In this document: positions 2,344 through 47,960 of the stretch, piece after piece
Layout of the letters: every line of letters begins with the position of its first letter
How positions within the stretch are numbered: position 1 is the stretch's first letter
NCBI GenBank assembly: GCA_007116145.1
Contig: SKJB01000019.1
Span: 10,868 to 74,867, forward strand
Source: Limnochordia bacterium
Lineage (GTDB): Bacteria > Bacillota > Limnochordia > Darwinibacteriales > DTU012
DNA length: 64,000 bases
Reading direction: 5' to 3'
Translations under genes and position numbers: made by a program
The notes under the pieces: model-generated
Database searches by the model: none
What the model was told of the DNA's origin: nothing
The model's input: the letters and a program-made list of their open reading frames with translations, nothing else

Positions 2344-2346
2344 TTA

Positions 2347-9747: not shown

Positions 9748-9843
9748 TTCCCTTCACCTCTTGCGTACTACATAAATTCCAATACTATTTGTCCGACAAG
9801 CTTTATGGCATAGTAAAAAGCCTGGTCTATGCCAGGCTTTTTA

Positions 9844-23334: not shown

Positions 23335-23339
23335 CAATC

Positions 23340-26935: not shown

Positions 26936-27721
26936 TTAATCGATTAAAAAAACAACTGCATAGTGCGCAAAAAAGTCATATTTCTTAGCAGCTTCAAAAA
27001 TTCTACGAGCATCATTTTGACTGATAATAACCTCTGTTCTTGCAGGACCAGCTACATCAAGGGCGACGATCGTTAATGGTGAAGTATATGATAAGCGTCC
27101 AGGGACGCTAACCCGTTGCACCATGTTCGACGATAACTCTCGACCATAGGATACCACTCCCTGTTGTTGCACATAATCATAAGATGCCACAACACCGCCA
27201 TAAATCAATTCACCAGATTCAGACCAGACCCGAGGACTGATACCACGCTGTAACCCTAATCCGCGAGCATCCACAATTAATCCGGTATATACCTGGCGAT
27301 CAACGACTAGTTGGAATAAACCATCTTGATTGGATGCGTCTATATGGGATGATCGAGCTATACTCATCATCTGATCAACACTACCATCAGTTAGACCTTC
27401 GTTCGTGTATACACGTACAGACGCGCGGTTTGCACGGACTGGAGTTATGAATTGGAGATCAACACTATCCTGGGATTCTAGACCGCGATGTAACTTCGAC
27501 ATATGTAAAAAATCGCCGCTCTCACCATGAGTCCAAAGGGATATACGTGTCGGAATACTACTCACACTTCCAGGTAGAGTAAACGAGAGATCATAGGTAG
27601 CATGAGCTTCTACCAAAAATGCCTTCACTTCATAACTAGCCTGTACCTGCTGATAACCAAATAAACCAGTAACAACGAGCAGCAAACCAATGACAATAAT
27701 TCCACGACTACCCCGTTTCAT
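26936..27721 (-). CDS. Secreted protein or lipoprotein, unknown function
   Basis: It has the signal peptide MKRGSRGIIVIGLLLVVTGLFGYQQVQA. I recognised no motif. Confidence 0.4.
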   Translation of the reverse strand: MKRGSRGIIVIGLLLVVTGLFGYQQVQASYEVKAFLVEAHATYDLSFTLPGSVSSIPTRISLWTHGESGDFLHMSKLHRGLESQDSVDLQFITPVRANRASVRVYTNEGLTDGSVDQMMSIARSSHIDASNQDGLFQLVVDRQVYTGLIVDARGLGLQRGISPRVWSESGELIYGGVVASYDYVQQQGVVSYGRELSSNMVQRVSVPGRLSYTSPLTIVALDVAGPARTEVIISQNDARRIFEAAKKYDFFAHYAVVFLID

Positions 27722-27874: not shown

Positions 27875-28669
27875 TTAGAGCTTCTGATATACATGATAAC
27901 GTAATCGTTGCGAACTGCCACCCCAAAATCCGAGAATATGGTGAGGTGCTTGTTTTTCTAGAACAACATAAAAGCGGTGAGGAAAGAAAATCCGAATAAG
28001 ACCCCTTAGACCAAGAGAAAAAACGATAATATTATCTGAATCTTTCAGCATAACATTCATAGTTTCTGGAAATGTAGACTGCCTCACTAATTTATCAATC
28101 TCACTCTGCTTTAGTAAGCTTACTTGTAAACGGTTAAACTTATCTCCGCTATTGCTATCATACAAATTCCCATGAAACGTAGTCTCCCCAGCTAGTACTA
28201 GAGATTGCAAATATAAACCTAATGACTCTATGTCGACGGTTTCCGTTGGAATATCGTGTTCCCGAATTTGCTGGGATTCTTGCTCTAAGAAAAATTCAAG
28301 CACTAAGCGGTCTACTTCTATATCAATAAATGCCGTCCGACGATCAAATCCGATTCGCTCTATATCATCTTTGGCCCTAACTTCTAATTCGCTACTTAGT
28401 AAAAGAAAACTGAGATCATAAACACTCTTACTTTGGTAGCTCGGTCCAGTAGCTGCAATCGTTATTTGAGCCAAGTCACGATCAATCCTCATCGATGTCG
28501 TATACGAATACTCAATGACATCATCAGGTGTAAGGATATCTATTCTGTATCCCTGCAAATCTGGAAGACTATCGGGCAAACTTTGAGCCATACCAGTCGC
28601 TAGCCCGAATAAACTGCAGACTGTTAATAAACACATCATAAACACCATGCGATCACACTTCACAACCAA
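27875..28669 (-). CDS. Secreted protein, unknown function (possibly LolA/RseB-like fold)
   Basis: It has an N-terminal hydrophobic signal (MVFMMCLLTVCSLFGLATGMAQS). The true start may be the internal Met, and the family assignment is weak. Confidence 0.35.
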   Translation of the reverse strand: MVVKCDRMVFMMCLLTVCSLFGLATGMAQSLPDSLPDLQGYRIDILTPDDVIEYSYTTSMRIDRDLAQITIAATGPSYQSKSVYDLSFLLLSSELEVRAKDDIERIGFDRRTAFIDIEVDRLVLEFFLEQESQQIREHDIPTETVDIESLGLYLQSLVLAGETTFHGNLYDSNSGDKFNRLQVSLLKQSEIDKLVRQSTFPETMNVMLKDSDNIIVFSLGLRGLIRIFFPHRFYVVLEKQAPHHILGFWGGSSQRLRYHVYQKL

Positions 28670-29414: not shown

Positions 29415-30920
29415 ATGAAACTAAAACATATTTTACTAATTATCGGCTTAGCTCTTTTGCTTGTTATCTGGTACTTTCGCACCTGGTTTCAAGGACTCGC
29501 ACTTTACTTCTATGCAACTCCAGTGATTTGGCAGGTGCTTATACTCACCTTCACCCTACACTACGGTGTCTTTAAGCAAATTCCAGCTCTAAACAAGAAA
29601 CAAGAAATAAAAATAGACCAAAATAATGCAGAGGAAGTTACAGCTGCAGGTCTGATTTCTTTTTTTCTCTTCTTTCTATTACTTATTCCCGGTTTGATCA
29701 CTGCAAATATTGCTCGTGGTGTACACTTAGCGCAAACCGTAGATTATCAGTTCCGTGATACATTACCCGAGTCCACAGATGATATCCGACTCATGCCGTA
29801 TCATGTAGCGAAACGCTACGCAAAGGACTCACTACAACTGAGCCAATTTAAACTCGGCACAGAAAACATTGCATTGATCGACGGTAAATTACAATGGGTC
29901 TTCCCCTTAACGCCTGATGGGCTAGTAATCACTTTTTTACAGAAAAACAAAGGAATCGTCACGGTTGACGCAACCACAGAAGAAAAGAATTCTCGGCACT
30001 ACTGGGAAGACATGGAAATTGGTGAAGGAATGCAGATCCGTGACAACCTCTACTGGAATCTTTACCGACGTCATTTTTTTGTATCAACCGATGATCCATT
30101 CTACTTACCTCATAATGATACTATCTACACTGTAGTCGGCACAATTGGCTACCGCTTTCATTTTCGCTGGGGTGTGATCTACACTTCGCCCTACTTTAAA
30201 GGGGTCTACATTGTCGACGCAGCTGGAAATAGCGAATTTGTCTTATCCGAAGCGGCTACCAACCATCCCGTCTTAGCTGGAAATCGGATTTTTCCCGAGA
30301 ATCTTACACGTACATTCGTCAATGCATACCAATACCATCTTGGCGCACTAAACAAGATATTTATCCATAAAGATCAAATCCAAATACAAGATACACCAAG
30401 TCCAGGGAGCTCCGTAAATCGCCAGCCCTACCTAATGAATACTGAAGAAGGTCTCAAGTGGTTTATTAGCACCGAACCCTATGGTGCTAGTCACGGTATT
30501 TTCAAAATTTTTGTTGTAGATGCACGAACAGGACAGATTGAAATCTATGAATTGCCACAAGATCAAACTCTAACAGGTCCCGTACGATCTGTGGACTATA
30601 TTCGCCGTTCCAACCCTGTTGTCGATTGGAGCCGATTTAATTCTGTCGAACCTCTACCTTTTGTACGAAATCAGAGTCTATTCTGGAAATTAACAGTTAT
30701 TCCATCAGATGCAGCCGGTATAGCCTATCAAGCCTTTATCGATGCAAATACCAATGAGGTGTTTGAACTACGGCAACCAGCCGATATTCAAGCATTTCTA
30801 GTTGGTAACGAGGTTGTACAACCTCGTTTGGCAGCCAGAGCAGACGACGATGTCATCAATACAATTCGAGCGAAGCTTAAGGAATTAGAACAACTGCTGG
30901 ATCAACTAGACGAAAAATAG
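29415..30920 (+). CDS. Membrane-anchored protein with 3 N-terminal TM helices and a large extracytoplasmic domain, function unknown
   Basis: The protein is 501 aa with TM segments at about residues 5-25, 30-50 and 78-100. An RBS GGAGGG precedes the start and a strong terminator follows. I recognised no motif. Confidence 0.5.
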   Translation: MKLKHILLIIGLALLLVIWYFRTWFQGLALYFYATPVIWQVLILTFTLHYGVFKQIPALNKKQEIKIDQNNAEEVTAAGLISFFLFFLLLIPGLITANIARGVHLAQTVDYQFRDTLPESTDDIRLMPYHVAKRYAKDSLQLSQFKLGTENIALIDGKLQWVFPLTPDGLVITFLQKNKGIVTVDATTEEKNSRHYWEDMEIGEGMQIRDNLYWNLYRRHFFVSTDDPFYLPHNDTIYTVVGTIGYRFHFRWGVIYTSPYFKGVYIVDAAGNSEFVLSEAATNHPVLAGNRIFPENLTRTFVNAYQYHLGALNKIFIHKDQIQIQDTPSPGSSVNRQPYLMNTEEGLKWFISTEPYGASHGIFKIFVVDARTGQIEIYELPQDQTLTGPVRSVDYIRRSNPVVDWSRFNSVEPLPFVRNQSLFWKLTVIPSDAAGIAYQAFIDANTNEVFELRQPADIQAFLVGNEVVQPRLAARADDDVINTIRAKLKELEQLLDQLDEK

Positions 30921-30930
30921 CAACAAAAGT

Positions 30931-30971
30931 AAAACCCTAGTACTCCAGGTATCGGAGTACTAGGGTTTTTT
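30931..30971. terminator. Bidirectional rho-independent terminator
   Basis: The hairpin CCCTAGTACTCC-AGGTATC-GGAGTACTAGGG has 12-bp perfect arms, flanked by AAAA and TTTTTT. Confidence 0.85.
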
Positions 30972-30976
30972 ACCCC

Positions 30977-33658
30977 TCACTGATTGAGATCGCGTCGTTT
31001 AGCAAGTTGCTCTTCCTGTTCCTTGCGACTTCGTAACCGCTCTAGATTGTGCAGCTGCCGTTGCTGCCGCTTCTCTTTACTAGCAACCCATGGCCATAGC
31101 AGTGCTTGCCACGTGACGAGCCGCACTCCAATATCGAGGACAAAGAGGAGCAGCGCCGCTAACACAAACCAGGACCAAATATCTCGATAGTCGTGGTAAA
31201 ATGTGTCACGAACTGCAAAGACTTCCGCAGGATCGGATAACTCTCGTCCATCAGTCGCTTGGGCTAAACGACCCATCAGATCCCTTTGTCCAGTAGGAAG
31301 CCTGTATTCGGGTGAATAAGGAACCACTACTCCGGTTTGCACCGAGTTCGCTGTTTGTTGCGATTCCCAATTAATCGTAACGAGATATGTACCAGAACCA
31401 GTTACATCAAAAACTCCCTGGTATTCCCCAGGTCCAGATTGATTAAGCATGATGGAGTAAAAGTCTCCTTGCGGAGCACTAACTCCTGCATCTATGGTAA
31501 GAAAGTTTAGGAAATCTCCGTTGTAATCAAGAGCATCAACAATAATTCTGCCCTGCAATTCATCTATAACAACCTGTGGGAAGACATTCTCTACCGTCGC
31601 ATCTCGCAAGACATGACGCACCATCTGCCCCACTAATTTCTCATATTCCCCAGTTCCCACCCAGTCTTGTAACCAATTTCCACCCATATCTGAAAGAAAA
31701 CTAACCGTCCGGCCCAACCCATAGCGCCAGCTTGCTAGCAATGGAGAATTATCAGGAGTTATTAAGTGCACATCTGCTAACTCGCGGGCGGTGGTGGCAA
31801 TAAAGCCATGAATCTTCGGAACTGCGGCCCAACTAATTTCAGCAACTAGTGGTGTTTGCGCAAGGGGAATCGGTTGAAAAGACTCCTCACTAATTGCATG
31901 GCGAATCATCCGACTCGTTTCTGCCACAAAGATTTGGGTGATTTCGTTAATATCTGTAGTATAGTAGAGTTCGCCTCCACCCCAGTTAGCTAGGTCTGTC
32001 ATTAAGTCTAGATCGACATCATCGCCAAGGGCGATAGCACTTAAAGTAATATTAGCAGCACGCAAACGCTCTGTAATTCCGCGATAATCTGCATCCACAC
32101 TTATACCATCAGACAGGAGCACAATATGGCGTAATGCCGTTTTCTCATCAATCATTGCCCTATAGGCTTCTTGTAGTGCAGGGTAAATCAGAGTCCCACC
32201 CCCTGGTAGAAGCGGAGCTAGTTCCTCGATTAGCTGTGTTTTGTTTTGTGCCCTCTGAATCGGAATGATCCATTCGGTGTGATTATCAAAAGCTAATAGG
32301 CCGATTCGCTCTTCGCTGACAAGCATATCGAGAACAGCCACTGTTGCTTCTTTTGCCAAATCCATCTTATTTAAACCACCACTACCCAGCACCACCTCAC
32401 CCATACTGCCTGACTTATCTAACACAATCAGCATAGTCAGTGTTGGAAATAGTACGCGTTGCTCTATCCGTGAATGCACTGGGAGCATAGTCTCTAATGG
32501 TGTATCGGTGTACTCGCCCATACCAAAGCTATTTTCACCAGCAAGGGCTACTAATCCACCGCCAAAATCTCGTACATAACTTTGGAGTATTTGCAGTTGC
32601 CCGCGAGAAAAAGTACTGCTCGGCACATCATTGATTATCACAGCTGCAAAGGATTGTAACTCCTGCAAAGTAGCGGGAAATGCTGATGGCAACCGAGTTT
32701 CTACATCCATATCATGCTCTTGTAGTCCAGCGATAAAACTATCCTGTTCCGGACTAGGGTTGCTAATTAATAGAATAGGCGCATGGCCTTCAACAACAAC
32801 AAACCCGGCACCCCAATTATTCGCAAGTATCGTATCTGGCCTGGCATCCACTTCAACTCGATACCGGTGAAAACCACCAGATGAGATACTTTGCTCATAC
32901 ACAAAACCATTAACGCCTGGTTCGAGTATAACTTCCTCTTCCTCAACAAGCCGATCGTTATGATATAAGCGCAAGGTACCTTCGGCTTTTTGTGTACTCG
33001 ATATGCTGACACGCAAAGGAAACTCTTGGTTGCGGCGTACTCGCGGTGCCATGAACACCTGATCAACTAACACTTCAGGTCCATTTTCGCGGCTTAGAGG
33101 ATAAACGTCAATGGGTATACCGTTTTCGCGGAAAACCAAGGCCGTTTGCAGCGCAGACCCCATGTTTTGCTCCCCATCACTTAGGATTACAACCCGACGA
33201 TTACCGATCTGGGACAAATGATCCAAGGCTAAGTCTAGACCTGCCTGTATATTCGTGTAATTAGATTGCACCGTGGAGTGGAAATCAGTAAACAATACAT
33301 TGTTTTGAGGCAATGCTTCCACTACCGCATTAGCCCCAAACACTACAATACCTACACTATCTTCCTTTTGTTGATACGCAAGCGACTCCGAAATAAAGTC
33401 TCTTGCCCTATCTCTTTGCTCGACCTCCATACTTGCTGATAGGTCCACCACATAGATGACGGAATTCTCATCACTAGGTAGCACTAGACGAACTTGAGCA
33501 AGAGCTGCGATTAAAAGAATAAGCAGAAAAAGGCGTAGCCCGCAAGCGATCTGTTCTTTGATAGCACGAGAACGCAAACTACGGCTATATACATAGACAA
33601 CTAGGGGTAATACACCAAGAAGTAGCAAATAGATCGGTCTTCCAAAATAGACTGGCAT
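30977..33658 (-). CDS. Membrane protein with a BatA-type N-terminal TM anchor and two von Willebrand factor A (VWA) domains plus a C-terminal TM and coiled-coil tail
   Basis: The N-terminus is of BatA_N type (PLVVYVYSRSLRSR). The first VWA domain is marked by VIYVVDLSASM...ILSDGEQN, and the second by IVLDKSGSM...LLSDGIS. A C-terminal TM is followed by EKRQQRQLHNLERLRSRKEQEEQLAKRRD; 893 aa. Confidence 0.75.
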   Translation of the reverse strand: MPVYFGRPIYLLLLGVLPLVVYVYSRSLRSRAIKEQIACGLRLFLLILLIAALAQVRLVLPSDENSVIYVVDLSASMEVEQRDRARDFISESLAYQQKEDSVGIVVFGANAVVEALPQNNVLFTDFHSTVQSNYTNIQAGLDLALDHLSQIGNRRVVILSDGEQNMGSALQTALVFRENGIPIDVYPLSRENGPEVLVDQVFMAPRVRRNQEFPLRVSISSTQKAEGTLRLYHNDRLVEEEEVILEPGVNGFVYEQSISSGGFHRYRVEVDARPDTILANNWGAGFVVVEGHAPILLISNPSPEQDSFIAGLQEHDMDVETRLPSAFPATLQELQSFAAVIINDVPSSTFSRGQLQILQSYVRDFGGGLVALAGENSFGMGEYTDTPLETMLPVHSRIEQRVLFPTLTMLIVLDKSGSMGEVVLGSGGLNKMDLAKEATVAVLDMLVSEERIGLLAFDNHTEWIIPIQRAQNKTQLIEELAPLLPGGGTLIYPALQEAYRAMIDEKTALRHIVLLSDGISVDADYRGITERLRAANITLSAIALGDDVDLDLMTDLANWGGGELYYTTDINEITQIFVAETSRMIRHAISEESFQPIPLAQTPLVAEISWAAVPKIHGFIATTARELADVHLITPDNSPLLASWRYGLGRTVSFLSDMGGNWLQDWVGTGEYEKLVGQMVRHVLRDATVENVFPQVVIDELQGRIIVDALDYNGDFLNFLTIDAGVSAPQGDFYSIMLNQSGPGEYQGVFDVTGSGTYLVTINWESQQTANSVQTGVVVPYSPEYRLPTGQRDLMGRLAQATDGRELSDPAEVFAVRDTFYHDYRDIWSWFVLAALLLFVLDIGVRLVTWQALLWPWVASKEKRQQRQLHNLERLRSRKEQEEQLAKRRDLNQ

Positions 33659-33676
33659 CGTTAGTCCCCCATTAGA

Positions 33677-35506
33677 TTACAATTTTTGCGAACGTGGTCG
33701 ATGGTAGAGATACCATTCAAGAAATAACAAAACGATTCCAAGTAAGACGATATACGGCCAGATATCCTGATAAAACGGTCCCTCTGCCTGGCGAGCTGCC
33801 ACAAAACGCTCCGAGAACACTTGTGGGCGCACATCTGACTCTTGCTTGGAGAGAAGATTGACTGCAAAGTAATCCACTGTTTCGTCATGCATTGTAATTG
33901 GATAAAAACCAACACTCGGTGTATCTAAAACAACAAACCGGTGATCTGACCAATACAGACTGATTTCCTCTCCGCGCGGATTTTTCATACTTTGGGGCAT
34001 TTTTAAGCGGCGTACTGGGAATGTATAGGCATCGCCTGCATGGACTAGAGCATAGTTAGCATCAAAAACATGAGGATAGAACCACGTAACTACGTTTGTT
34101 ACAAAGATCGGGAAACCGACCTGTAATGGCAAATTGGATTCGTACAAGTCAAAAGGTAAAACCGCGAAGCGAAAGTCTGGCTGCTCATAGATGGTTAACA
34201 AAGGACCGTGGACTCCCGAAATAATCGTTTCAAATTCCGGCGGCCAATGTAGCTGATACCAAGAACGAATTCGCAAACCACTTAAGTCCACAAATCGCAG
34301 TAGGGGATGATGCGATTTCCATCCAGTTATTTGCGCTTCACCTCGTATTAACGGCTGTCCCTCTTGTAGTTCTGGGGGATAGGTCCCAATAAATATGGTG
34401 TTACCAGAAAGATTAGCTGGTGGACTCAGGCGATCAAAGATTACTAAGTCATACAAATCCAGCTCCTGTCCAGAGACTTCGGACTTAGTAAATAACCGCA
34501 GATTCGGGATGGTTAATAGTGCTCGTTCGAGAAAGAAATTACCTGGGCTCACTAATAAGACTCGCAGCCCTTCACCAATGCCTAAAGGTAAGTATGCGGT
34601 GTTGTCAACGGCTAAATCATCAGTATGTAAGGTCACTAGATAGTTCCCGCGTCCGGTTGTGTTTAACGGGTAAAAAACAGCTTTGCTCTCCTCAGGTCCA
34701 AGTTCTATGCTATCTCGAATTATAATTCGACCTTGTAAACTTATGGACAATGGAACAATCTGTTCAACATCAGAGAAATTGCTTACTTCAATAAAAACTT
34801 GGTATTCATTTAAACGACCAGTAGCCATCGAAGCATCTAGTTTGGTAATTCCCACATTAGCAGTGTTGGTACCAATTTGAAACACTTCGAGGGTATGCGG
34901 TTTATCATAGGCTAGACCTGGATATGATCCATCGGTAAAGAACCAGATCTCTCCACTTACAGCATCTGTCAGTAGTTCACTAGCTTGCGTAAACGTTGCA
35001 GCGAGATCAAGCGCTGTATCGGTCGCTGCTAATTCCTGCAATGTGCGCATTATCCGTTGATGATCCATTGTAAACTCTTGAACAATCTCGGGTTTGGCAC
35101 TCGCTAATACGAGAGCCACCTCCGTGTCCGGATGCAGATTGCGGATTCGTTGGATAGCATCGACAACAGAAGCTGCAAAGCGGCTTGGTGTTATGTCATT
35201 TGCCTGCATACTCGCTGATCCATCGATAACCAGCACTACCTTTGTGCTTTGATAGTTTGAAATCAAAACTTGGGGCTGTGCTAATGCGCTAATCAGTAGG
35301 GCAAAAATCATTAATTGTAACACAAGTAGCCAATCAAATTCTAGGCGAAAACGGGGTTTCGGGGAGCTATAGTCTTCAATAAGCGACTTCCATAGCATGG
35401 TGGACGGGACGCGAATATCCTGACGCTTACCCTTGAGAATATAAAATACGATAATCAGTCCAGATAACAAAAATAGATAGAGTGCTGCTAAATTAAGAAA
35501 TTGCAC
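33677..35506 (-). CDS. BatA/BatB-like VWA-domain membrane protein
   Basis: The N-terminus MQFLNLAALYLFLLSGLIIVFYILKGKRQDIRVPSTMLWKSL is an aerotolerance-regulator-type N-terminus. The VWA MIDAS motif VVLVIDGSASM is present, and there is a C-terminal TM; 609 aa. Confidence 0.75.
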   Translation of the reverse strand: MQFLNLAALYLFLLSGLIIVFYILKGKRQDIRVPSTMLWKSLIEDYSSPKPRFRLEFDWLLVLQLMIFALLISALAQPQVLISNYQSTKVVLVIDGSASMQANDITPSRFAASVVDAIQRIRNLHPDTEVALVLASAKPEIVQEFTMDHQRIMRTLQELAATDTALDLAATFTQASELLTDAVSGEIWFFTDGSYPGLAYDKPHTLEVFQIGTNTANVGITKLDASMATGRLNEYQVFIEVSNFSDVEQIVPLSISLQGRIIIRDSIELGPEESKAVFYPLNTTGRGNYLVTLHTDDLAVDNTAYLPLGIGEGLRVLLVSPGNFFLERALLTIPNLRLFTKSEVSGQELDLYDLVIFDRLSPPANLSGNTIFIGTYPPELQEGQPLIRGEAQITGWKSHHPLLRFVDLSGLRIRSWYQLHWPPEFETIISGVHGPLLTIYEQPDFRFAVLPFDLYESNLPLQVGFPIFVTNVVTWFYPHVFDANYALVHAGDAYTFPVRRLKMPQSMKNPRGEEISLYWSDHRFVVLDTPSVGFYPITMHDETVDYFAVNLLSKQESDVRPQVFSERFVAARQAEGPFYQDIWPYIVLLGIVLLFLEWYLYHRPRSQKL

Positions 35507-36399
35507 TACTTAAGCCCCCTCTCCTTGCGTAATCGCTGAAAGAGTATGTGCTCTAACGGATCTGTTGTTGTGATCCTAAGATATAGATTGCCATACTCCT
35601 TGGAAAATCGGGCAAGCGCTTGGCAGTGTGCCTCCACATTTTGACGATATGCATTTACCGCAGCTTCGCTCAGATACACCTCTTTTGCTTGAGATGTTTC
35701 AGAATCAATTAGATATAAATCTGCACCCGGGGTCGGAGCAACCTCCTGTTCCGAAAGTATTTGCACTAACCAAACCTGCCAACCAGCACTACGCAAGGCT
35801 AATATACCTTGTTGATAACCTAACGGATCGAGAAAATCACTAAGCACTACAGCTAAGCCTGGTTGCTTATACTTATGCCCAAACAGAGTGAGAGCTTGAT
35901 TCACGTTTGTCTCACCCGCTGGCTCTAACTGCGCCAAAAAATCAAAGTAGGATCTTGCCCGATTCTTACTCTTCACTGGGCGCATCACTGCATCAAGACA
36001 GGATGAAAAAGCTACCGAACCCACCCGATCCGATTTTATCAGTGCAATATAACCCAAAGCCGCTGCTAACTGTGCCGCATAGTGAAGCTTTGTTGGTTGA
36101 CCATAACCCATCGATCGACTGTGATCAACGAGAAAATAAACCAAATAATCCCGTTCCTCGACAAACTGCTTAAGGAACAACTGCTCCAAGCGGGAATAGA
36201 GGTTCCAATCAATATAGCGGTAATCATCACCCCGCTGGTATTGCCGATAGTCATTAAACTCCATACCTCCACCTAAGCGTGGACTCCTTCGCTGTCCCAC
36301 TAAGTGAGTACCCTGTGTTCGTTTAGCTACCAACTCTGATTTCTCAAGCAGACGTAAAAAACTATTATCTAACAACAAGGCTCTCACCTCCTTAGACAC
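35506..36399 (-). CDS. DUF58-family protein, the VWA-like partner of MoxR ATPases
   Basis: The sequence GGMEFNDYRQYQRGDDYRYIDWNLYSR...YFLVDHSRSMGYG is typical of DUF58. It overlaps the MoxR gene by 8 nt. Confidence 0.8.
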   Translation of the reverse strand: MSKEVRALLLDNSFLRLLEKSELVAKRTQGTHLVGQRRSPRLGGGMEFNDYRQYQRGDDYRYIDWNLYSRLEQLFLKQFVEERDYLVYFLVDHSRSMGYGQPTKLHYAAQLAAALGYIALIKSDRVGSVAFSSCLDAVMRPVKSKNRARSYFDFLAQLEPAGETNVNQALTLFGHKYKQPGLAVVLSDFLDPLGYQQGILALRSAGWQVWLVQILSEQEVAPTPGADLYLIDSETSQAKEVYLSEAAVNAYRQNVEAHCQALARFSKEYGNLYLRITTTDPLEHILFQRLRKERGLK

Positions 36400-37384
36400 T
36401 CTCTGGTACCTTGGCGATTATTTCATGAATAAGCTGATCCATATCTTGTTCCGTTGCTTCTCCTTCGAAATTTAGGAGAATTCGATGGCGGAGTGCGGGC
36501 AGAGCTACAGCGCGCACATCGGCAAAACTAACAGTGAAGCGCCCTTCCATAAACGCTTTTGCCTTACCGGCTAAGATAAGAGTTTGACCTCCCCGTGGAC
36601 TCGCTCCGTAGCGAACATAATCCTTAACAGCCGTGATATTCGCCTCTGCGTGAGGATGGGTTGCTAAAATAATCCGAGCAGCATAGGTTAAGACCTCGTG
36701 AGACACAGGCATCTGCCGTACTAACGCCTGTAGCTGTAACAATGCATCACCATCAAACATTTTTGTCAGTGAAGCCTCTTCCCCAATAGTGGTTTTCAAT
36801 AAAATATCGCGTAGCTCCTCAAAGCTAGGATAGCCCACCTTGACTTTAAAGAAGAAGCGATCAAGTTGCGCTTCCGGCAAGGGATAGGTGCCTTCCAACT
36901 CCAAAGGATTCTGCGTTGCTAGAACGAAGAACGGCTGCTCTAGGTAGCGCGTTTCTCCAGCAATCGTAATACTACGCTCCTGCATGGCTTCTAATAGAGC
37001 CGATTGCGTCTTTGCTGTAGCGCGATTAATTTCATCGGCTAGAACAATTTGCCCAAAGAGGGGACCTGGTTGAAATTGAAAATATCGCCGGCCATTGGTG
37101 TCTTCCATTAAAATATTGGTACCTGTAATATCAGCAGGCATTAAATCAGGAGTAAATTGAATACGGGTAAACTTTAAATCAAAGACCTGACCGATACTGT
37201 GAACGAGCATGGTCTTTCCTAAACCCGGAACACCTTCTAACAAAACATGACCATTACACAATATAGCGGTCATCACTTGATCAATCACACTATTTAGCCC
37301 GACAATTACTCTACCAATCTCCTGTTTTGCATGTATTATCGCTTGTTGGTATTCTGCAAATTGTTTTTGCTCCAATCCATCCAT
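36392..37384 (-). CDS. MoxR-family AAA+ ATPase
   Basis: Walker A is LLEGVPGLGKT, Walker B is VLADEINRA, and the sensor region is VLATQNPLELEGTYPLPEAQLDRF; 330 aa. Confidence 0.9.
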   Translation of the reverse strand: MDGLEQKQFAEYQQAIIHAKQEIGRVIVGLNSVIDQVMTAILCNGHVLLEGVPGLGKTMLVHSIGQVFDLKFTRIQFTPDLMPADITGTNILMEDTNGRRYFQFQPGPLFGQIVLADEINRATAKTQSALLEAMQERSITIAGETRYLEQPFFVLATQNPLELEGTYPLPEAQLDRFFFKVKVGYPSFEELRDILLKTTIGEEASLTKMFDGDALLQLQALVRQMPVSHEVLTYAARIILATHPHAEANITAVKDYVRYGASPRGGQTLILAGKAKAFMEGRFTVSFADVRAVALPALRHRILLNFEGEATEQDMDQLIHEIIAKVPESV

Positions 37385-37400
37385 TCAAAATCCCTCGCTT

Positions 37401-38711
37401 CTAGTCCATTATTATCAGTGAAAAATACTCTCGTACCAAATCTCGATATGCAGCAGGTATTTGTTCCGTCGTCAAATGATTTAACAGTTCCGTTCGATAG
37501 GTCACCAACCGATCAAGCACTACATCATTTGGATGCTGTACACCTTCTTGCGGTGGTAACAATTCCTCTAAAAATGCAGTGATATAAGAATCATCACCCA
37601 TCTCTACACGGGCTCGAGACATTTCATAATCGGACTCTGTTATATCCACATCTGTGGGGGGAGCTAATCCATCATCATCAAGAGTACCTGCAGTCGATCC
37701 TTGGATTTCCGCTTCTGTGTCTTCGTCTAAGCTAAGAGCATAGCCATCGATCGGTTCGTCACCAAAATCGTAATCATCGAACTCACCGTCCATTGTCGCT
37801 GCGCGCCGCTCTCCTTCACTATGGTTATTCTCTTCCTCATCATAGTCATTGTCTGCAGGCTGATAGTTATCTCCTTCTGCATCCATTGAATCTCGTCCTT
37901 CTTCTCTGGCATCTGGAGTTTCACTGCTTTCTCGAGGCTCCCCTGGACTGTTTGGTTGCTCAAAACGACGGCGTAAAATCTCTTGACTCTCTTCCTGTTC
38001 TCGACTGAGCCTTCGTTGTAACTCATCTAGCTCCTTATACAATGTTTCTCTTTCTTCATCGCTGTCTGGTTGAAATTGGGTGAAATCCGGATCTTGCGGG
38101 CGAATACGTGTAGCTTCTCGCACTAACGAGTCACGAAATAATTCTTCAGCTAATTCTGAGATTAACTCATCATCAGAGATTTGCCGTGATGAATACGGAA
38201 TATCCACGCTTACTCTCGGGCCTCGTTGCGGTGCTAGTACCACAGCCATCACACTACAGAGTGCAATGATCAAATACTTGCGCAGCGGCTGCCATTGGAT
38301 CGTAAAGGGGTTTCGTTTATCCTCCCGTTCAAGCTCTGCGAGAACCTGTTTTATGAGTAAAGGATAAAACGGATTGGTTTTCTCCTCGTCCATTAGTTGG
38401 CAAACGGTCATCAACTTGGCCTCTAACCCTAAAGCCCTATCCGCTTGGGCTATTACTCGGCGCCGAGCAATAGGCCAAAGTAATCCCACTGCACCACTGA
38501 GAACAGGTACCAACACGATAAAAGTGATGACACCCCGCCAGTTAACCTCCATCAAAAGCCACTTCTGACTCGCTAAGCAGAGTGCAAACAGTAAGCAACT
38601 CACCATTAGACCCCACAGGCAAAAAGTAATTCCTTGGATTGTTTGCCCTCTACGTTGATAATCCTCTACGATTTTAATCAGTTCTTGATCACGGCTCATT
38701 TTTATCACCAC
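37401..38711 (-). CDS. Membrane protein with an N-terminal TM hairpin, a long acidic low-complexity linker and a conserved-looking C-terminal segment; a DUF4129-like MoxR-operon accessory protein is inferred
   Basis: TM helices lie at about residues 28-50 and 60-82. Residues 230-390 are extremely D/E-rich (DAEGDNYQPADNDYDEEENNHSEGE...). The C-terminus is ...YRDLVREYFSLIIMD. Its position directly upstream of MoxR in the same operon is the main argument for the family assignment, which is inference only. Confidence 0.4.
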   Translation of the reverse strand: MVIKMSRDQELIKIVEDYQRRGQTIQGITFCLWGLMVSCLLFALCLASQKWLLMEVNWRGVITFIVLVPVLSGAVGLLWPIARRRVIAQADRALGLEAKLMTVCQLMDEEKTNPFYPLLIKQVLAELEREDKRNPFTIQWQPLRKYLIIALCSVMAVVLAPQRGPRVSVDIPYSSRQISDDELISELAEELFRDSLVREATRIRPQDPDFTQFQPDSDEERETLYKELDELQRRLSREQEESQEILRRRFEQPNSPGEPRESSETPDAREEGRDSMDAEGDNYQPADNDYDEEENNHSEGERRAATMDGEFDDYDFGDEPIDGYALSLDEDTEAEIQGSTAGTLDDDGLAPPTDVDITESDYEMSRARVEMGDDSYITAFLEELLPPQEGVQHPNDVVLDRLVTYRTELLNHLTTEQIPAAYRDLVREYFSLIIMD

Positions 38712-38716
38712 CAGTC

Positions 38717-39367
38717 CTAACGAAATACCAATCCAAAAAAATCAAGAATTAAGTCTAATAGTAATACCATGCTTATACCTACTAGGATCCAAAGAGTCAT
38801 TTGCGTGATAATCAGTGCGCCTATAAGAATGACTGCCACTATTCCACTTACCAGCCAAGCAAAACGTCCAACAGTTTCGCCAATCGATAACTGAATCCAG
38901 CCGGTTGTCACAGCAATAACAAGAACCCTCATAATAACTGTTCCCAACATAGTGTATGACAAACCATCAACAAAGACAACTAAGAGACCAAGGGGAATCG
39001 TATTCATAATGAGTACCAAATTAAGCACAACAATAGAAAGAGCTTTAGCCATCACAATTTCGCTCATAGAGAAATGACCATACTGCTTCCACTCCCGTAC
39101 TGAGTAACGGTCCGCAAAACTAAACATTCCTTCAATAAGGTGCAGGTTAATCAGAATCAATCCACTACTGAGAGCATACCCGTATCCTACTCCCACCAAA
39201 GGTCGCTCAAAACCACGAATCAATCCATCGGGCCACATCAAGAGTAAGATGAAACCAACACCGCCAACGAGTAGAAGATTCCACACCCAAAAGAATCGAC
39301 TGTGTAGGTGTGCATAGAGATCACTAACAAATACAATAAGGAATCGTTCAATTAACACCAGCCTCAT
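38717..39367 (-). CDS. Small polytopic membrane protein, 5-6 TM helices, possibly SpoIIM/DUF95-like
   Basis: The 216-aa protein is almost entirely hydrophobic helices. It overlaps the upstream gene by 4 nt, and the family is inferred from operon context only. Confidence 0.35.
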   Translation of the reverse strand: MRLVLIERFLIVFVSDLYAHLHSRFFWVWNLLLVGGVGFILLLMWPDGLIRGFERPLVGVGYGYALSSGLILINLHLIEGMFSFADRYSVREWKQYGHFSMSEIVMAKALSIVVLNLVLIMNTIPLGLLVVFVDGLSYTMLGTVIMRVLVIAVTTGWIQLSIGETVGRFAWLVSGIVAVILIGALIITQMTLWILVGISMVLLLDLILDFFGLVFR

Positions 39368-41262
39368 TCCTTCAACATTAAACTGATAGGGGTAAGTAAG
39401 AATCCGTAAAACTCTCGACTACCTGCACCAGAGAGTTGCACAATCTGCTGAAATCCATTTCCTTGAAGTACACTCATAAGCCAAAGTTCATCTCCATAAT
39501 TATTCGCTGCGAGTTCTTTTAATACCGTTTCCTCAAGCAGTTGTCTTAACACATCCGGTGAATTACGATTTACAAGGAGGCTCTCTATCTTTGGTAATGC
39601 AGCGTTTAAGCTAGAGTGACCGAATCGATTACGTTCCATAATAAAAAATTGCTCCTGATAGGGTAAAACAGGACCAAGAACATACCACTTACCTTCATAA
39701 TGTAGATAGTTTTGATCAACAGAAAACTCGGATTGATTTGTAATCTTTAAGCGTAATAATTCGCCAGACTGCGCCACATCGATAAAGATCGGCAATTCAG
39801 CTACATAATGAGTCCGAAAACCAGCAACTCCCCACTCGGTCTCCGTATGTAACGGTATACTCACTGATTCGGGTCTTACAATCGTTGTTAACAGATTAAA
39901 CAACGAATCTGCATTCGGAGCCAGAGTTGTAATACTACCTTGGGTCCGGCGTAACGTTACCTCTGGATCTCCAACACCAGTAACTATTAACGTATGATAA
40001 CCCTCCACTATGGCACGATTGCTTAGAGGGTGCTTTTGAATAAATGCCACATCCATCATTAACCGATTTACACTCCGTTGCGTATCATTAAACACCAGTA
40101 GCAATGCCAAGAAAGAAACTCCATTAATAACGAGTAAACCAAAGACAAGCAATAAGACATTACGTTTGCGAACCTGGATACTATAAAACAAACCTATCAG
40201 TGCACAACTAAGCAGGATAATCATTATTATCAAAAAATAACGGGACGGTCCATGCCATACTCCACTTGCTAATATTTTTGCGGTGAGACCATCCATAGAA
40301 ACTGTAGCCGTCCTAGGCCACCTTTTCTGAGCGATCAATTCACCAAATAACCAGTGGCGCTGCTGATCGATGCGGAGCTGTGGAGCCTCAAGATCAAAGG
40401 CCAAAAAGTAAACATCACCATGTCCAATATGATTATGAATCACTAAGGGATGCTGTTCATATGCTAGCCAAATATGTGCCTCTTCTACCTGCGTCTGCCA
40501 GATTTCTAGTTGATTCACACTGTTTAGAAGCGGGTGTGTTAGGTTCTCAGATTCACTGAATGTGAGCGTTTGCTTGAGGCGGACTTCCATGGGAAATAGT
40601 CGACGAAACAATGGAGAACTGATCGATTGATACCCGCCTGAACCCGACCAAATAAGTGACTTCCCAGGTACTAACCAATTTAAGATAGCATCGACATGAG
40701 CACTACTCAGTGCATGTAAATCGGCATCATGCATAATAATGGTATCGATCGTTTGATAACCTAACCACTCCACAGGCAGATACCGAGGCTGTGAATAAAA
40801 AACTTGTGTTGGTAATTCATTTTGCCGCAGAAACTCAAATCCTGTTCCGTGATCACTAATAACTAATACCTGATTTGCTAATTGACCCTTATGATCTAGT
40901 TGTATTTGGTTCTCCCAATGCACAATATCGTTAGCTTCTACTCGAATCTGATAAGGCGATCCGCTATACCATACCACTGCTCTATATTGCCGTTTGGAAA
41001 AGGCTGGTATGGACAGTGGAATGCGATATTCCTCCTGCCTTTGCTGCGATCTGAGTATATTATAATGTGTTGTAGACAGCACGATTTCTCCTTGAAAGGG
41101 CAATTCTTCGCTACTAATTTCCATCCAAACTGGTATCCAACCGACACTTGCTTGGTTATGATCAAAGCCCATTTGTACATCAAGAGTTAATGCGTGAGTA
41201 ACAAAAGAAATAAAGCACAACAGCATCAAAGAGATTGCTAAAATACGTGCCGTTTTTTGCAT
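39364..41262 (-). CDS. Large secreted/membrane protein with a signal peptide plus internal TM segments, unknown function; first gene after htrA in the MoxR operon
   Basis: The likely true start is the internal Met (MQKTARILAISLMLLCFISFVTHA, signal peptide) preceded by an RBS AGGAG. The annotated upstream extension would overlap htrA by 83 nt. TM helices lie around residues 360-420 of the 667-aa ORF. Confidence 0.45.
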   Translation of the reverse strand: MQKTARILAISLMLLCFISFVTHALTLDVQMGFDHNQASVGWIPVWMEISSEELPFQGEIVLSTTHYNILRSQQRQEEYRIPLSIPAFSKRQYRAVVWYSGSPYQIRVEANDIVHWENQIQLDHKGQLANQVLVISDHGTGFEFLRQNELPTQVFYSQPRYLPVEWLGYQTIDTIIMHDADLHALSSAHVDAILNWLVPGKSLIWSGSGGYQSISSPLFRRLFPMEVRLKQTLTFSESENLTHPLLNSVNQLEIWQTQVEEAHIWLAYEQHPLVIHNHIGHGDVYFLAFDLEAPQLRIDQQRHWLFGELIAQKRWPRTATVSMDGLTAKILASGVWHGPSRYFLIIMIILLSCALIGLFYSIQVRKRNVLLLVFGLLVINGVSFLALLLVFNDTQRSVNRLMMDVAFIQKHPLSNRAIVEGYHTLIVTGVGDPEVTLRRTQGSITTLAPNADSLFNLLTTIVRPESVSIPLHTETEWGVAGFRTHYVAELPIFIDVAQSGELLRLKITNQSEFSVDQNYLHYEGKWYVLGPVLPYQEQFFIMERNRFGHSSLNAALPKIESLLVNRNSPDVLRQLLEETVLKELAANNYGDELWLMSVLQGNGFQQIVQLSGAGSREFYGFLLTPISLMLKE

Positions 41263-41284
41263 AGATACCACTCCTGTGCTGACA

Positions 41285-42322
41285 TTACGGTTGCGCATCA
41301 ATTTCGACAGTAATAGTGCTGCGATATCCGTCGCGCAGTATAATGATAAATACCGTTTCACCCACATCCATCTGACCTACCATGCTTGTAACTTCCTGCG
41401 GGCTCAGTATGCTGTGGCGATTGATTTCCACAATGATATCGCCGACTTTCATCCCCCCTATCTCTGCAGGGCTGCGCCGCATCACGCTTGTAACTAACGC
41501 TCCGCGAGTATGCGTCAACCCATACTCCGATGCAATCGTAGGTGTGATAGCTGCAACATCAACTCCAAGTCTCGGACGCAACACACGACCATAAGTAAGT
41601 AAGGATTCCATAATCGCTACTGCCCGATTTATCGGGATAGCAAAACCGATTCCTTGCGCGAAGGGAATAATTGCGGTATTAATCCCGATTACTTCCCCGG
41701 CTAAATTCACTAAGGGACCACCACTATTGCCTGGGTTAATGGCTGTGTCTGTCTGTAAGAAATCCTCATACACAGTGCCACCTGCTTCCATGGTTCTGTG
41801 CTTGGCACTGATAATCCCAGCTGTGACTGTGAGTTGGGTACCTAGATGCATGGCATACGGACTACCAAGAGCAATGACCCATTCACCGACCCGGATATTG
41901 TTCGAATCACCTAAATGGACAGTCGGCAGTGTATGTAAGTAAGGGTTTTCTGTTAGTTTTAGAATAGCAATATCGCTCTTAGCATCACCACCCACAAATA
42001 GTACATCGGGAATAGTCGTACCATCAGCGAGCGTCACCGTTATTTTCTTTGCTTGCTGTACCACATGGTTATTGGTTAAGATATAACCCGCTTCACTAAC
42101 GATAAACCCAGATCCAGTTGCAGTTCGGCTCTGACGACCACTTGGTTCCATTTCCACATGAATATTAACAATGGCTAAAGAAACTACATCCACAACATCG
42201 GCAATGGCATATCGACTTGTAGTGTTTAATTCTGCAAAAGCGCTACTTAACTGTACTCCCGTCATCAGAAAAATTACTAGGATTAGGATCCACCATTTCG
42301 ATTTCGGGTTTTGTAACCGCAT
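41285..42322 (-). CDS. htrA: HtrA/DegP-family serine protease (trypsin-like domain plus PDZ)
   Basis: The catalytic triad context is GSGFIVSEAGYILTNNHVV (His), DIAILKL (Asp) and TDTAINPGNSGGPLVN (Ser). An N-terminal TM/signal and a C-terminal PDZ (GDIIVEINRHSI) are present. Confidence 0.9.
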   Translation of the reverse strand: MRLQNPKSKWWILILVIFLMTGVQLSSAFAELNTTSRYAIADVVDVVSLAIVNIHVEMEPSGRQSRTATGSGFIVSEAGYILTNNHVVQQAKKITVTLADGTTIPDVLFVGGDAKSDIAILKLTENPYLHTLPTVHLGDSNNIRVGEWVIALGSPYAMHLGTQLTVTAGIISAKHRTMEAGGTVYEDFLQTDTAINPGNSGGPLVNLAGEVIGINTAIIPFAQGIGFAIPINRAVAIMESLLTYGRVLRPRLGVDVAAITPTIASEYGLTHTRGALVTSVMRRSPAEIGGMKVGDIIVEINRHSILSPQEVTSMVGQMDVGETVFIIILRDGYRSTITVEIDAQP

Positions 42323-42384
42323 CTCGGATAACCCTCCTTAATAAGAAGTATACTACACAATGATTTACTCTTCAACCTTCTATA

Positions 42385-42431: not shown

Positions 42432-43805
42432 TTAATTTCTGAGGCTGTGAATAGGAGCCGGGATCCGCCCACCGCGTTTGATAAAATCCACACTTGAAAA
42501 CTTACTCACGCTAAGAATGGGTGAACTGCCCAACAAACCGCCAAATTCAACCCAATCACCCACTATCTTATTGGGAACAGGAATAATCCGAACTGCGGTT
42601 GTTTTGTTATTTATCATACCAATCGCAGCTTCATCAGCGATGATGGCAGCTAATGTCTCTGCTGGTGTATCTCCAGGAACTGCTATCATATCAAGTCCTA
42701 CTGAACAGACGCAAGACATTGCCTCCAGCTTCTCAATATTGAGCGATCCTGTTTGAATCGCCTCAATCATACCTTCATCCTCACTGATAGGAATGAAAGC
42801 TCCACTGAGACCGCCTACATGAGAAGATGCCATGGTACCACCTTTTTTGACCGCATCATTTAGGAGCGCCAAGGCTGCTGTCGTTCCTGGTGCTCCGCAA
42901 CTCGCAATTCCCATCTCCTCAATAATTCGAGCTACACTATCACCAACAGCGGGTGTGGGTGCGAGCGATAAATCAATGATCCCAAAGGGCACGTTTAATC
43001 GCCTAGAAGCTTCTCGAGCCACTAACTGACCGACACGAGTTATCTTAAAGGCTGTTTTTTTCACCGTCTCCGCTAACACATCAAAACTCTCACCCCGCAC
43101 GGTTTCTAACGCTGCTTTCACTGTTCCCGGTCCACTGATCCCCACATTGATCACGCACTCCGGCTCGCCGATTCCGTGAAACGCGCCAGCCATAAAAGGA
43201 TTGTCTTCAGGAACGTTCGCAAATACCACCAGTTTTGCACAGCCTAGACCATCACTATCCGCTGTCAATTCAGCGGTTTTTTTTATGATCTCTCCAAGCT
43301 GAGCAACGGCATCCATATTGATTCCTGCCTTCGTCGTTGCCACGTTCACAGACGAACACACTCGTTCGGTGACAAATAGCGCCTCGGGAATTGCCTTTAA
43401 CAATCGATGATCCCCGTTGGTAAACCCTTTATGCACTAGAGCAGAGAACCCGCCGATGAAGTTAACGCCCACCTCTTTAGCAGCTTCATCAAGAGTTCGG
43501 GCAAAGGCTACATAGTCTTCATCCTCACTAGACTCTGCAATCATGGATATGGGAGTCACCGAAATCCGCTTATTAATTATGGGGATCCCATATTCGCGTT
43601 CAATCTGTTCACCCACTTGCACTAAATCCTTAGCATAGCGTGTAATCTTATCATACATTTTTTTGCGAGCTATCTCTCCATTACCATGACAGCAATCACG
43701 GAGTGAAATTCCCATTGTAATGGTGCGTATATCTAGTTTTTCTTTTTCGATCATCCGAAAGGTTTCTAACACTTCATAGGATTGTAACATAGATAACTCC
43801 TCCAA
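42432..43805 (-). CDS. UPF0210-family protein (DUF711)
   Basis: The 457-aa protein has the conserved N-terminus [26 protein letters not shown]. It has the usual ACT-domain UPF0237 partner immediately upstream with a 2-nt gap. Confidence 0.75.
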
Positions 43806-43807
43806 CG

Positions 43808-44077
43808 CTAAATTCGGTGCATGGACTTAAAAATGTCTTCATGTTGAATCTTGATCGAAACCCCCAAGGATTCCCCTTCAAGAGTTAAGCTATCACGCAG
43901 TTCATCTAGGGATAATTTAATATCTGCTAAATCCACGAGCATCATCATGGTAAAATACTCCTGTAAAATAGTTTGACTAATATCTAAAATGTTTGCATCT
44001 GCTTCAGCTAACACTGTACTCACCCGGGCAATAATCCCAGTTCTATCCTGACCAATCACAGTTATAATTGCTTTCAT
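43808..44077 (-). CDS. ACT-domain protein, UPF0237 family
   Basis: The sequence [38 protein letters not shown] is an ACT fold; 89 aa. Confidence 0.8.
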
Positions 44078-47845: not shown

Positions 47846-47960
47846 TCGTGGGAGAGTAGATGGCACGCGTGTTAGTGCTTAAGGATGGGACGTTGCCTTA
47901 AGACGAAGTGCTTTGTTTATCGAGCTGCGGTGTGTCCATCGCGTCCGCTGGCACCAAAGA
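47846..47960 (+). promoter_or_regulatory. THF (tetrahydrofolate) riboswitch aptamer upstream of folT
   Basis: GGGAGAGUAGAUGGCACGCGUGUUAGUGCUUAAGGAUGGGACGUUGCC...GACGAAGUG...GCUGCGGUG...CAUCGCGUCCGCUGG aligns block-for-block with the THF riboswitch (GGAGAGUAGAUG..CGCGUUAAGUG..GAAUGGGAUGUCGUC..ACGAAGCG..GCGCGGUG..CAUUGCAUCCGCUCC). A hairpin CCAAAGAG-UCCUUUU-CUCUUUGG follows at 47954-47977; its strand could sequester the AAAGGAGG RBS. Confidence 0.8.

Follow-up and report, generated by a model that had tools for sequence, protein, structure and literature searches.

The present analysis concerns eight genes at positions 30977-42322 (minus strand) of a 64,000-nucleotide (nt) window, i.e., the whole stretch of DNA that was analyzed, from contig SKJB01000019.1 of a Limnochordia bacterium. 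This locus probably constitutes one transcription unit encoding a Bat-like envelope module built around an MRP-class MoxR ATPase, in which a conserved core of seven genes is preceded by a clade-specific gene for the protease HtrA. It is an expanded variant of the known MoxR/DUF58/VWA system rather than a system new in kind, and it resembles in principle a membrane complex predicted in archaea. Operons of the MRP class are widespread and have been linked to aerotolerance, stress resistance and virulence. In the locus described here and in its relatives, three extra membrane proteins keep the same order next to the core even between distant lineages (40% and 62% GC), which makes it a useful lead for research on MoxR systems.

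Organization of the locus

The locus comprises eight minus-strand open reading frames (ORFs) for proteins of 345, 632, 216, 436 (or 432), 330, 297, 609 and 893 amino acids (aa). The genes, their notable parts and the associated sites are as follows (TM stands for transmembrane, MIDAS for metal ion-dependent adhesion site and D/E for aspartate plus glutamate):

41285-42322, minus strand: htrA, 345-aa membrane-anchored HtrA/DegP-type serine protease
39364-41262, minus strand: 632-aa protein, starting at the methionine at 41262, identical to database protein P0001
38717-39367, minus strand: 216-aa polytopic membrane protein, about six TM helices, conserved WP after the first helix
37401-38711, minus strand: 436-aa protein, more likely of 432 aa with the ATG at 38699 as its start (database protein P0014)
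37587-38228, minus strand: acidic linker of the 436-aa protein, residues 162-375, 31% D/E, net charge -44
36392-37384, minus strand: MoxR AAA+ ATPase, 330 aa, no TM helix
35506-36399, minus strand: DUF58 protein, 297 aa, no TM helix, VWA-like, MIDAS DHSRS at 92
33677-35506, minus strand: 609-aa BatA-type protein with BatA_N double-TM anchor, VWA domain, long extra ectodomain and C-terminal TM helix
30977-33658, minus strand: 893-aa protein with double-TM N-terminus, two VWA domains, GATase1-like module, beta-rich region, C-terminal TM helix and basic tail
31664-32434 and 32450-32788, minus strand: putative nested region of the 893-aa protein (second VWA domain and GATase1-like parts)
42347-42375, minus strand: promoter-like site TTGAAG-17-TATACT upstream of htrA, from a consensus scan and sequence reading, which is not proof of function
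30931-30969, minus strand: intrinsic terminator-like hairpin, 17-bp stem and T-rich tract, 8 nt past the last stop codon
42410-42433, minus strand: weak terminator-like hairpin of the upstream DUF711 gene

The junctions, as read from the sequence in the 5' to 3' direction, measure +22, -4, +17 (or +5), +16, -8, -1 and +18 nt, with +17 and +5 at the 216/436 junction corresponding to starts at 38699 and 38711, respectively. The tight packing of eight minus-strand genes, claimed previously from the letters alone (hereafter the sequence-only reading), was confirmed by these coordinates and by junctions of -8 to +22 nt. Shine-Dalgarno (SD) sequences are recognizable for most of the eight genes, and the SD AAGGAGG lies ahead of htrA, after the promoter-like site. 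The sequence-only reading had named two findings that would speak against a single unit, namely assignment of the unplaced proteins to housekeeping families and internal terminators splitting the locus. Neither was encountered: no housekeeping family was found for these proteins, and a terminator search within the operon gave no convincing candidate.

Nearly all genes from 1 to 47 kb of the window lie on the minus strand, and for this reason the shared strand says little about the operon. What goes beyond chance is the tight spacing together with synteny conserved elsewhere.

Conservation of the seven-gene core and its upstream neighbour

Only six related loci were inspected. A genome scan with MoxR provided one informative locus, L001, the others (L002-L004) representing unrelated contexts; a metagenome scan with a four-sequence alignment provided two short loci, both carrying HtrA. 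In L001, which belongs to a Bacillota metagenome-assembled genome, homologues of all seven genes from the 632-aa to the 893-aa protein are present in the same order. Their identities in gene order are 29, 29, 25, 65, 49, 39 and 44%, so the accessory proteins evolve much faster than MoxR. In L009 (62% GC) the order is 675-250-520-MoxR-DUF58-BatA-type up to the contig end, the first three genes being denoted by protein length. The first of them is detectably related to its counterpart (20-21% identity to the 632-aa protein), the third weakly, and the second corresponds chiefly by position. The 632-aa homologues of L011/L012 and L007 show 31-38% identity over long alignments, and the match in L008 is a 59-aa fragment. 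In the literature retrieved, no description of the seven-gene arrangement or of its HtrA linkage was found.

The genes of L001 are spaced more widely than those of the window: 215 nt separate the 422-aa gene from moxR (9788-10004) and 104 nt separate moxR from the DUF58 gene, compared with 16 nt and an 8-nt overlap in the window. The seven genes of L001 may therefore form two transcription units.

In HtrA of the window, an N-terminal TM/signal segment is combined with a trypsin-like domain and a single PDZ domain. The catalytic triad is represented by His in NNHV at 84, Asp in DIAIL at 117 and Ser in GNSGGP at 198, and thus the protein has the trypsin-like domain, the His-Asp-Ser triad and the at least one PDZ domain that define the HtrA/DegP family. 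It is matched by Pfam Trypsin_2 (1.3e-31) and PDZ_2 (4e-11), as well as by TIGR02037 (1.9e-100; 337 bits, which is below the cut-off of 416, with coverage of model positions 53-330 of 434 only).

An htrA gene is located directly upstream of the 632-aa homologue in L011/L012 (HtrA 61% identical to that of the window) and L007 (51%). In L008 a divergent htrA gene (product 47% identical) adjoins, on its upstream side, a 632-aa homologue disrupted by an insertion sequence (IS). Adjacency of the two genes is seen in four lineages. The HtrA position is taken by a class A penicillin-binding protein (PBP) gene in L001 (3541-5685) and by a Peptidase_S58 (DmpA-like) gene in L009 (9042-10001), which ends 8 nt before the DUF7408-like gene. 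Since L001 and L009 hold other genes in this position, what is conserved as a unit is the set of seven genes, with HtrA added to it repeatedly and in a clade-specific way. Of the eight-gene unit headed by HtrA that had been proposed earlier, the HtrA adjacency is retained, but the unit itself is reduced to seven genes. In every related locus with a readable upstream flank, which are few, the upstream neighbour is a gene for a protease, a peptidase or a cell-wall enzyme, and this constant presence of an exported protease, peptidase or PBP gene points to a role in envelope assembly.

According to another explanation, the protease encoded by htrA is an ordinary housekeeping enzyme whose gene just happens to be located upstream, and only the seven genes function together. 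The absence of HtrA upstream in L001 and L009, the divergent orientation in L008 and the 22-nt gap after htrA, which is the widest in the locus, agree with it. However, htrA and the 632-aa homologue are neighbours in four lineages despite the divergence of that homologue, there is no terminator between htrA and the next gene, and the 22-nt gap ahead of the latter contains an SD but nothing resembling a promoter. Independence of htrA is therefore considered unlikely.

The disruption in L008 (55-3685 of a metagenome contig) was observed as a split of the 632-aa homologue into an N-terminal part at 1125-1607 (plus strand) and a continuation near 3508-3684 (plus strand), interrupted by an opposite-strand 543-aa transposase-like ORF (1705-3336). 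Judging from the sequence, it looks like an IS insertion that inactivates the gene.

MoxR, DUF58 and the VWA proteins

The part of the locus that had been recognized previously as an expanded MoxR-DUF58-BatA/VWA operon was confirmed at the level of Pfam and NCBIfam domains. MoxR is matched by AAA_3 (1.8e-61, 206 bits) and AAA_lid_2 (1.1e-16), carries Walker A GVPGLGKT at 51 and Walker B LADEINR at 115, and is 65% identical to MoxR of L001 and 59% to that of L009. The DUF58 gene overlaps moxR by 8 nt, and its product is matched by Pfam DUF58 (6.1e-37, 127 bits) and VWA_2 (5.8e-8). The 609-aa protein is matched by Pfam BatA (4e-12), VWA_2 (1.3e-14) and TIGR02226, with MIDAS DGSAS at 95.

In the 893-aa protein, 44% identical to an 887-aa protein of L001, Pfam VWA_2 and VWA match two stretches each, with MIDAS DLSAS at 72 in the first domain and DKSGS at 414 in the second, and GATase1_like is matched at 4.1e-10. 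The two VWA domains proposed in the sequence-only reading were thereby confirmed. The BatA_N anchor proposed with them was not, since Pfam BatA on this protein is not significant and the double-TM N-terminus follows from hydropathy only. The supposed coiled-coil tail proved to be a C-terminal TM helix (about residues 831-849) followed by about 40 charged, net-basic residues.

The second VWA domain (409-577) is apparently inserted within the GATase1-like module: residues 291-403 align to the family of the 632-aa protein (hhalign E=3.2e-4), and residues 601-665 align to the C-terminal part of GATase1_like. The protein may therefore have a nested-domain architecture, as far as these alignments suggest.

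All four VWA-type domains, i.e., those of the DUF58 and 609-aa proteins and the two of the 893-aa protein, retain the DxSxS motif of MIDAS. No hydrophobic segment is present in MoxR or the DUF58 protein, and TM or signal segments are present in the other six proteins. In both the 609- and the 893-aa protein, K/R residues are abundant in the loop that joins the paired N-terminal TM helices, and the C-terminal TM helix leads into a short basic tail; because of this loop and tail their VWA ectodomains are predicted by the positive-inside rule to lie outside the membrane. For the BatA-type protein BB0173 of Borrelia burgdorferi, experiments placed the VWA domain on the periplasmic side (PMC5700661).

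The 632-aa protein and the DUF7408/DUF4350 family

The second gene of the operon, for which 633 aa had been given, encodes 632 aa. The protein consists of a signal/TM segment (7-25), an Ig-like beta-sandwich (about 25-120), a GATase1-like/GIFT domain (about 128-300), a TM hairpin (344-387) and a C-terminal beta-rich ectodomain. Direct comparison with Pfam and NCBIfam gave no match even at E<=10, DUF7408 and DUF4350 included, and the L009 homologue scored 23.6 bits in the DUF7408/DUF4350 test, against a Pfam gathering cut-off of 27. An exhaustive profile search, in contrast, gathered 3,391 cluster representatives (clusters at 50% identity, about 3,400), 1,182 of them at E<=1e-10. Among 65 sampled members, DUF7408 was found in 49, DUF4350 in 13 and GATase1_like in 4. 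The alignment of the 632-aa protein to the family is colinear over its full length, and the family-wide layout (signal peptide, ectodomain, central TM hairpin, second ectodomain) is the same as its own. On the basis of these profile comparisons, the protein is a remote member of the DUF7408/DUF4350 family.

Sequence and fold matches in PDB comprise GATase1-like, ThuA-like and IFT52-GIFT structures; in particular, two GATase1-like proteins from structural genomics, 3soz (9e-8) and 2gk3, are matched by the family profile. The central domain accordingly has a GATase1-like (flavodoxin-like) fold. By sequence reading, the equivalent of the nucleophile elbow is SGSGG, without a catalytic cysteine, and therefore the domain is not a glutaminase. 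The AlphaFold2 (AF2) model is confident at about 25-210 only, where a beta-sandwich is followed by an alpha/beta domain (predicted local distance difference test, pLDDT, 70-86). It is poor elsewhere, and its Foldseek matches in PDB are generic beta-sandwiches (TM-score about 0.15), which were used for the term "Ig-like" only. Since both the profile family and the GATase1-like fold matches lead to the same group, the DUF4350 assignment suggested earlier for one of the unplaced proteins is right at the superfamily level.

A word-indexed homology search with the 632-aa protein was nearly blind, returning the protein itself and two distant matches, and five matches were obtained with a 12-sequence profile. 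A tblastn search of the protein against plasmids gave no match. In a Rosetta-stone test of 149 family representatives, no fusion of DUF7408 to domains like the 216- or 436-aa proteins was found. In the literature searched, no mention of DUF7408 was found.

The 216-aa and 436-aa proteins

The sequence-only reading left three proteins of the locus unassigned. This remains valid for two of them: the 216-aa protein gave no match, and the 436-aa protein no credible match, in Pfam, NCBIfam (both to E<=10), PADLOC and PDB, whereas the 632-aa protein is now placed in a family. DUF4129, suggested earlier for the unassigned proteins, gave no match (E<=1 to 10) on the 436-aa protein and none on its homologues in L001 and L009.

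Homologues of the 216-aa protein occupy the same gene position in L001 (29-32% identity) and L011 (39-41%), and homologues of the 436-aa protein are found at the same position in L001, in L011 and weakly in L009. The 436-aa protein is composed of a TM hairpin, a segment at 81-146, a third TM helix and a linker that is acidic and disordered, and its C-terminus holds the conserved motif (E)(I/V)Pxx(x)R(D/E)(L/I)V(R/K)xYF. The segment 81-146 holds a conserved ADRxLxLxxxLxT...NPF motif and is predicted to be cytoplasmic; the linker is predicted, from the positive-inside rule, to be extracytoplasmic. Both motifs recur in the 520-aa protein of L009, where ADRxLxLxxxLxT follows the TM hairpin and the C-terminus carries (I/V)Pxx(x)R(D/E)(L/I)VxxYF. 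The cytoplasmic motif, the acidic linker and the C-terminal motif of this protein are candidates for the missing connection of the cytoplasmic ATPase to the VWA domains on the other side of the membrane. The acidity of the linker had been overestimated as more than 40% D/E at residues 230-390; the actual value is 32%, and only the best 60-aa window reaches 40%.

A word-indexed profile search with the 436-aa protein returned itself and the L001 homologue only, as words of acidic residues probably swamped the candidates. The AF2 model of the 432-aa form was discarded (pLDDT 44).

Comparison with known systems

The features that define an MRP-class operon are all present in the locus: an AAA_3 MoxR with Walker A and B motifs, an adjacent DUF58 gene and MIDAS-bearing VWA proteins. 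As in the Bacteroides Bat and other MRP-class operons, MoxR is followed by DUF58 and then by BatA_N-anchored VWA proteins with intact MIDAS, and by analogy a role in the envelope or in stress tolerance could be presumed. Unlike in the Bat operon, moxR is not the first gene and is preceded by htrA and three membrane-protein genes, and the host belongs to a Bacillota lineage, not to Bacteroidota or spirochaetes. BatA and BatB are proteins of roughly 330 aa. With 609 and 893 aa, the VWA proteins of the window exceed this length two- to threefold; they have extra GATase1-like and beta-rich ectodomains, and one of them carries two VWA domains. The 609-aa protein is of the BatA type. A BatB, being a second short protein with BatA_N and a single VWA domain, is not found: the 893-aa protein has two VWA domains and GATase1_like, in agreement with the earlier statement that it is not a standard BatB. 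Genes for BatC, BatD and BatE are likewise missing, as none of the eight proteins is matched by TPR, BatD or SH3 (with E<=10 as the limit for the three unknowns), which confirms that the three extra proteins stand outside BatC/D/E. The Bat operon and MRP-class MoxR proteins were reportedly covered by Tang et al. in 1999 and by Snider and Houry in 2006. For the Bat operon of Riemerella, Bat systems have been linked to stress and the envelope (PMC11834572).

The Borrelia burgdorferi cluster BB0170-BB0176 is similar in that BB0173 combines BatA_N and a VWA domain with a TM helix at the C-terminus, its three TM helices being placed equivalently, and MoxR and DUF58 genes are adjacent (PMC5700661). 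BB0173 differs from the 609-aa protein in being short (third TM helix at 310-328) and in lacking the extra ectodomain (PMC5700661). In addition, the Borrelia cluster includes a BatD/TPR/SH3 fusion and has no DUF7408-like, 216-aa-like, 436-aa-like or HtrA gene.

For archaea, a DUF4350-MoxR-vWA membrane complex (arCOG01314) was predicted by Makarova (2015), and oligomerization was noted for the GATase1-like fold (PMC5898192). The archaeal complex and the locus of the window have in common a membrane-anchored extracellular flavodoxin/GATase1-like (GldG-like) protein in one operon with MoxR and vWA, further membrane or secreted partners, and components most of which are predicted to be extracytoplasmic. 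The archaeal DUF4350 protein has a signal peptide together with just one TM helix, at the C-terminus, whereas the 632-aa protein combines its signal peptide with a TM hairpin in the centre and a second ectodomain, and belongs to the DUF7408 branch, below the Pfam threshold. The partners also differ, being BatA-type VWA proteins and two orphan families instead of Ig-like S-layer-type proteins (arCOG02884 / PF07760); PF07760 gave no match in the operon in the Pfam search.

Clusters with the layout DUF4129-DUF4350-MoxR-DUF58 are known as well. Compared with them, the TM helices, variable linker and short conserved C-terminus of the 436-aa protein are merely analogous.

The mycobacterial moxR1-DUF58-VWA operon shares with the locus an MRP-class MoxR, DUF58 and a membrane VWA protein (PMC12067865), as well as linkage to an exported envelope enzyme: RipA/RipB in mycobacteria and HtrA, a PBP or an S58 peptidase here. 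MoxR1, encoded next to ripAB, is reported to assist RipA export (PMC12067865). The linked envelope genes are different, the mycobacterial VWA proteins are short, and no DUF7408-like or accessory genes are described there. With the GldAFG ATP-binding cassette (ABC) transporter only the GIFT-like fold is shared (fold comparison; GldG, IFT52 and OST48 form the GIFT group), and no ABC_tran or ABC2_membrane match was found in the operon with Pfam and NCBIfam.

Proposed mechanism and alternatives

In the Bat-like module favoured here, the 609-, 893- and 632-aa proteins would expose large ectodomains between the membrane and the wall and could form a hetero-oligomeric scaffold, in which three MIDAS-bearing VWA domains would be combined with up to three GATase1-like oligomerization modules. 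The 216-aa polytopic protein could serve as the membrane core. The best candidate for coupling the two sides of the membrane is the 436-aa protein, whose segment 81-146 would be in the cytoplasm and whose linker and C-terminal motif would be outside; the D/E side chains of the linker could act as MIDAS ligands or bind cations. Cytoplasmic MoxR, recruited via the VWA-like DUF58 adaptor, would use ATP to assemble or remodel the complex from inside, and the membrane-anchored extracytoplasmic HtrA could mature the large exported components or control their quality. Analogy with the Bat, BB0173 and mycobacterial MoxR1 systems suggests a likely physiological role in envelope homeostasis or in the tolerance of stress.

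Several observations weigh against this explanation. HtrA is missing in two of the six related loci. The similarity of the 216-aa protein to its positional equivalent in L009 (250 aa) is weak, though colinear (hhalign E=0.028), and the GATase1-like module in the 609-aa protein is not significant (hhalign E=0.14). The linker is much less acidic in homologues (19-23% D/E), and its role as a MIDAS ligand is therefore speculative. After the gene for P0003, a distant DUF7408 protein, there is no MoxR gene, and therefore the linkage to MoxR is not family-wide. All topologies come from hydropathy and the positive-inside rule.

A more far-reaching version would see in the locus an undescribed trans-envelope machine spanning phyla. 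In this machine MoxR and DUF58 would control, via the two orphan membrane proteins, an extracytoplasmic lattice of up to three GATase1-like/GIFT proteins with three MIDAS sites; the linker would supply the MIDAS ligand from within the machine, and maturation would be the dedicated task of HtrA, of another peptidase or of a PBP. Such a machine appears improbable at present, but if real it would be the first concrete architecture for transmembrane signalling by MRP-class MoxR systems.

Alternatively, the locus could encode a secretion or transport machine, with the 632-aa GIFT protein and the 216-aa polytopic protein as a conduit and MoxR as the energy source. This model draws on GldG/GldF of the gliding ABC transporter and agrees with the matches of the 632-aa central domain to GATase1-like, ThuA and IFT52 (GIFT) folds and with the position of the small six-TM protein gene directly after the 632-aa gene (4-nt overlap); moreover, a novel secretion system was proposed by Makarova et al. 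for the archaeal DUF4350-MoxR-vWA clusters (PMC5898192). It is nevertheless doubtful: an ABC ATPase is missing from the operon, neither ABC2_membrane nor any other transporter family matches the 216-aa protein in Pfam, NCBIfam and PDB, no cargo gene is evident, and MoxR proteins are in general remodelling chaperones and not translocases.

The best understood action in the wider family is that of a MoxR/VWA chaperone pair which inserts a metal cofactor into, or activates, one enzyme, as in the CoxD/CoxE, NorQ/NorD, CbbQ/CbbO and RavA/ViaA models, and the MoxR ATPase of the window does adjoin a MIDAS-bearing VWA-like protein. This function is very unlikely here, considering that no candidate target enzyme is present in the operon or conserved in the flanks, which differ in every related locus, that the AAA_3/DUF58 pairing belongs to the MRP class and not to those subfamilies, and that membrane or ectodomain proteins account for five of the seven products of the core. 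An anti-phage or conflict function like that of the MoxR-vWA-beta-propeller ternary systems (Kaur et al. 2020), to which a secondary Pfam bpMoxR match on MoxR (39.8 bits) could point, is already largely refuted and scarcely credible: AAA_3 scores 206 bits over the same region, no beta-propeller, VMAP or effector domain is found in the operon by Pfam, PADLOC finds only generic protease similarity for HtrA, and the context is housekeeping with uniform GC.

Genomic setting

GC content across the operon is 0.43-0.45, the same as in the flanks, by which a horizontally acquired island was ruled out. The flanks carry housekeeping functions, namely a DUF711/ACT pair, an OpuA-type ABC transporter, a T-box-controlled ilvB-like gene and a tetrahydrofolate (THF) riboswitch with a gene for the S-component of an energy-coupling factor (ECF) transporter, and they point to a Bacillota chromosome. 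The organism is rare, as every operon protein is present in just one or two public assemblies.

Upstream, the operon is adjoined by a DUF711 (UPF0210) gene (42432-44077, minus strand) paired with a small ACT-domain gene. The hairpin of the DUF711 gene, the sole separator from the htrA promoter region, is weak (10 pairs, 3 of them G-C), and therefore some read-through into htrA is possible. On the other side lies a convergent 501-aa ORF (29415-30920, plus strand) with N-terminal TM helices, no Pfam match and no visible relation to the operon proteins; the hairpin at 30931-30969 is possibly a bidirectional terminator common to this ORF and the operon. Downstream of the operon region are two ORFs of 261 and 264 aa (26936-27721 and 27875-28669, minus strand) without a Pfam family.

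A T-box leader (23376-23610, minus strand; 107 bits) is located upstream of a gene for a thiamine pyrophosphate (TPP) enzyme resembling acetolactate synthase (21715-23337). HMGL-like and ILVD_EDD-type genes are found further along, and the T-box-controlled genes are probably a cluster of branched-chain amino-acid biosynthesis. The THF riboswitch aptamer (47850-47952, plus strand; 51.7 bits) lies directly upstream of the ECF S-component gene; the listed start of this gene (47908) falls inside the aptamer, and therefore the true start is probably further downstream.

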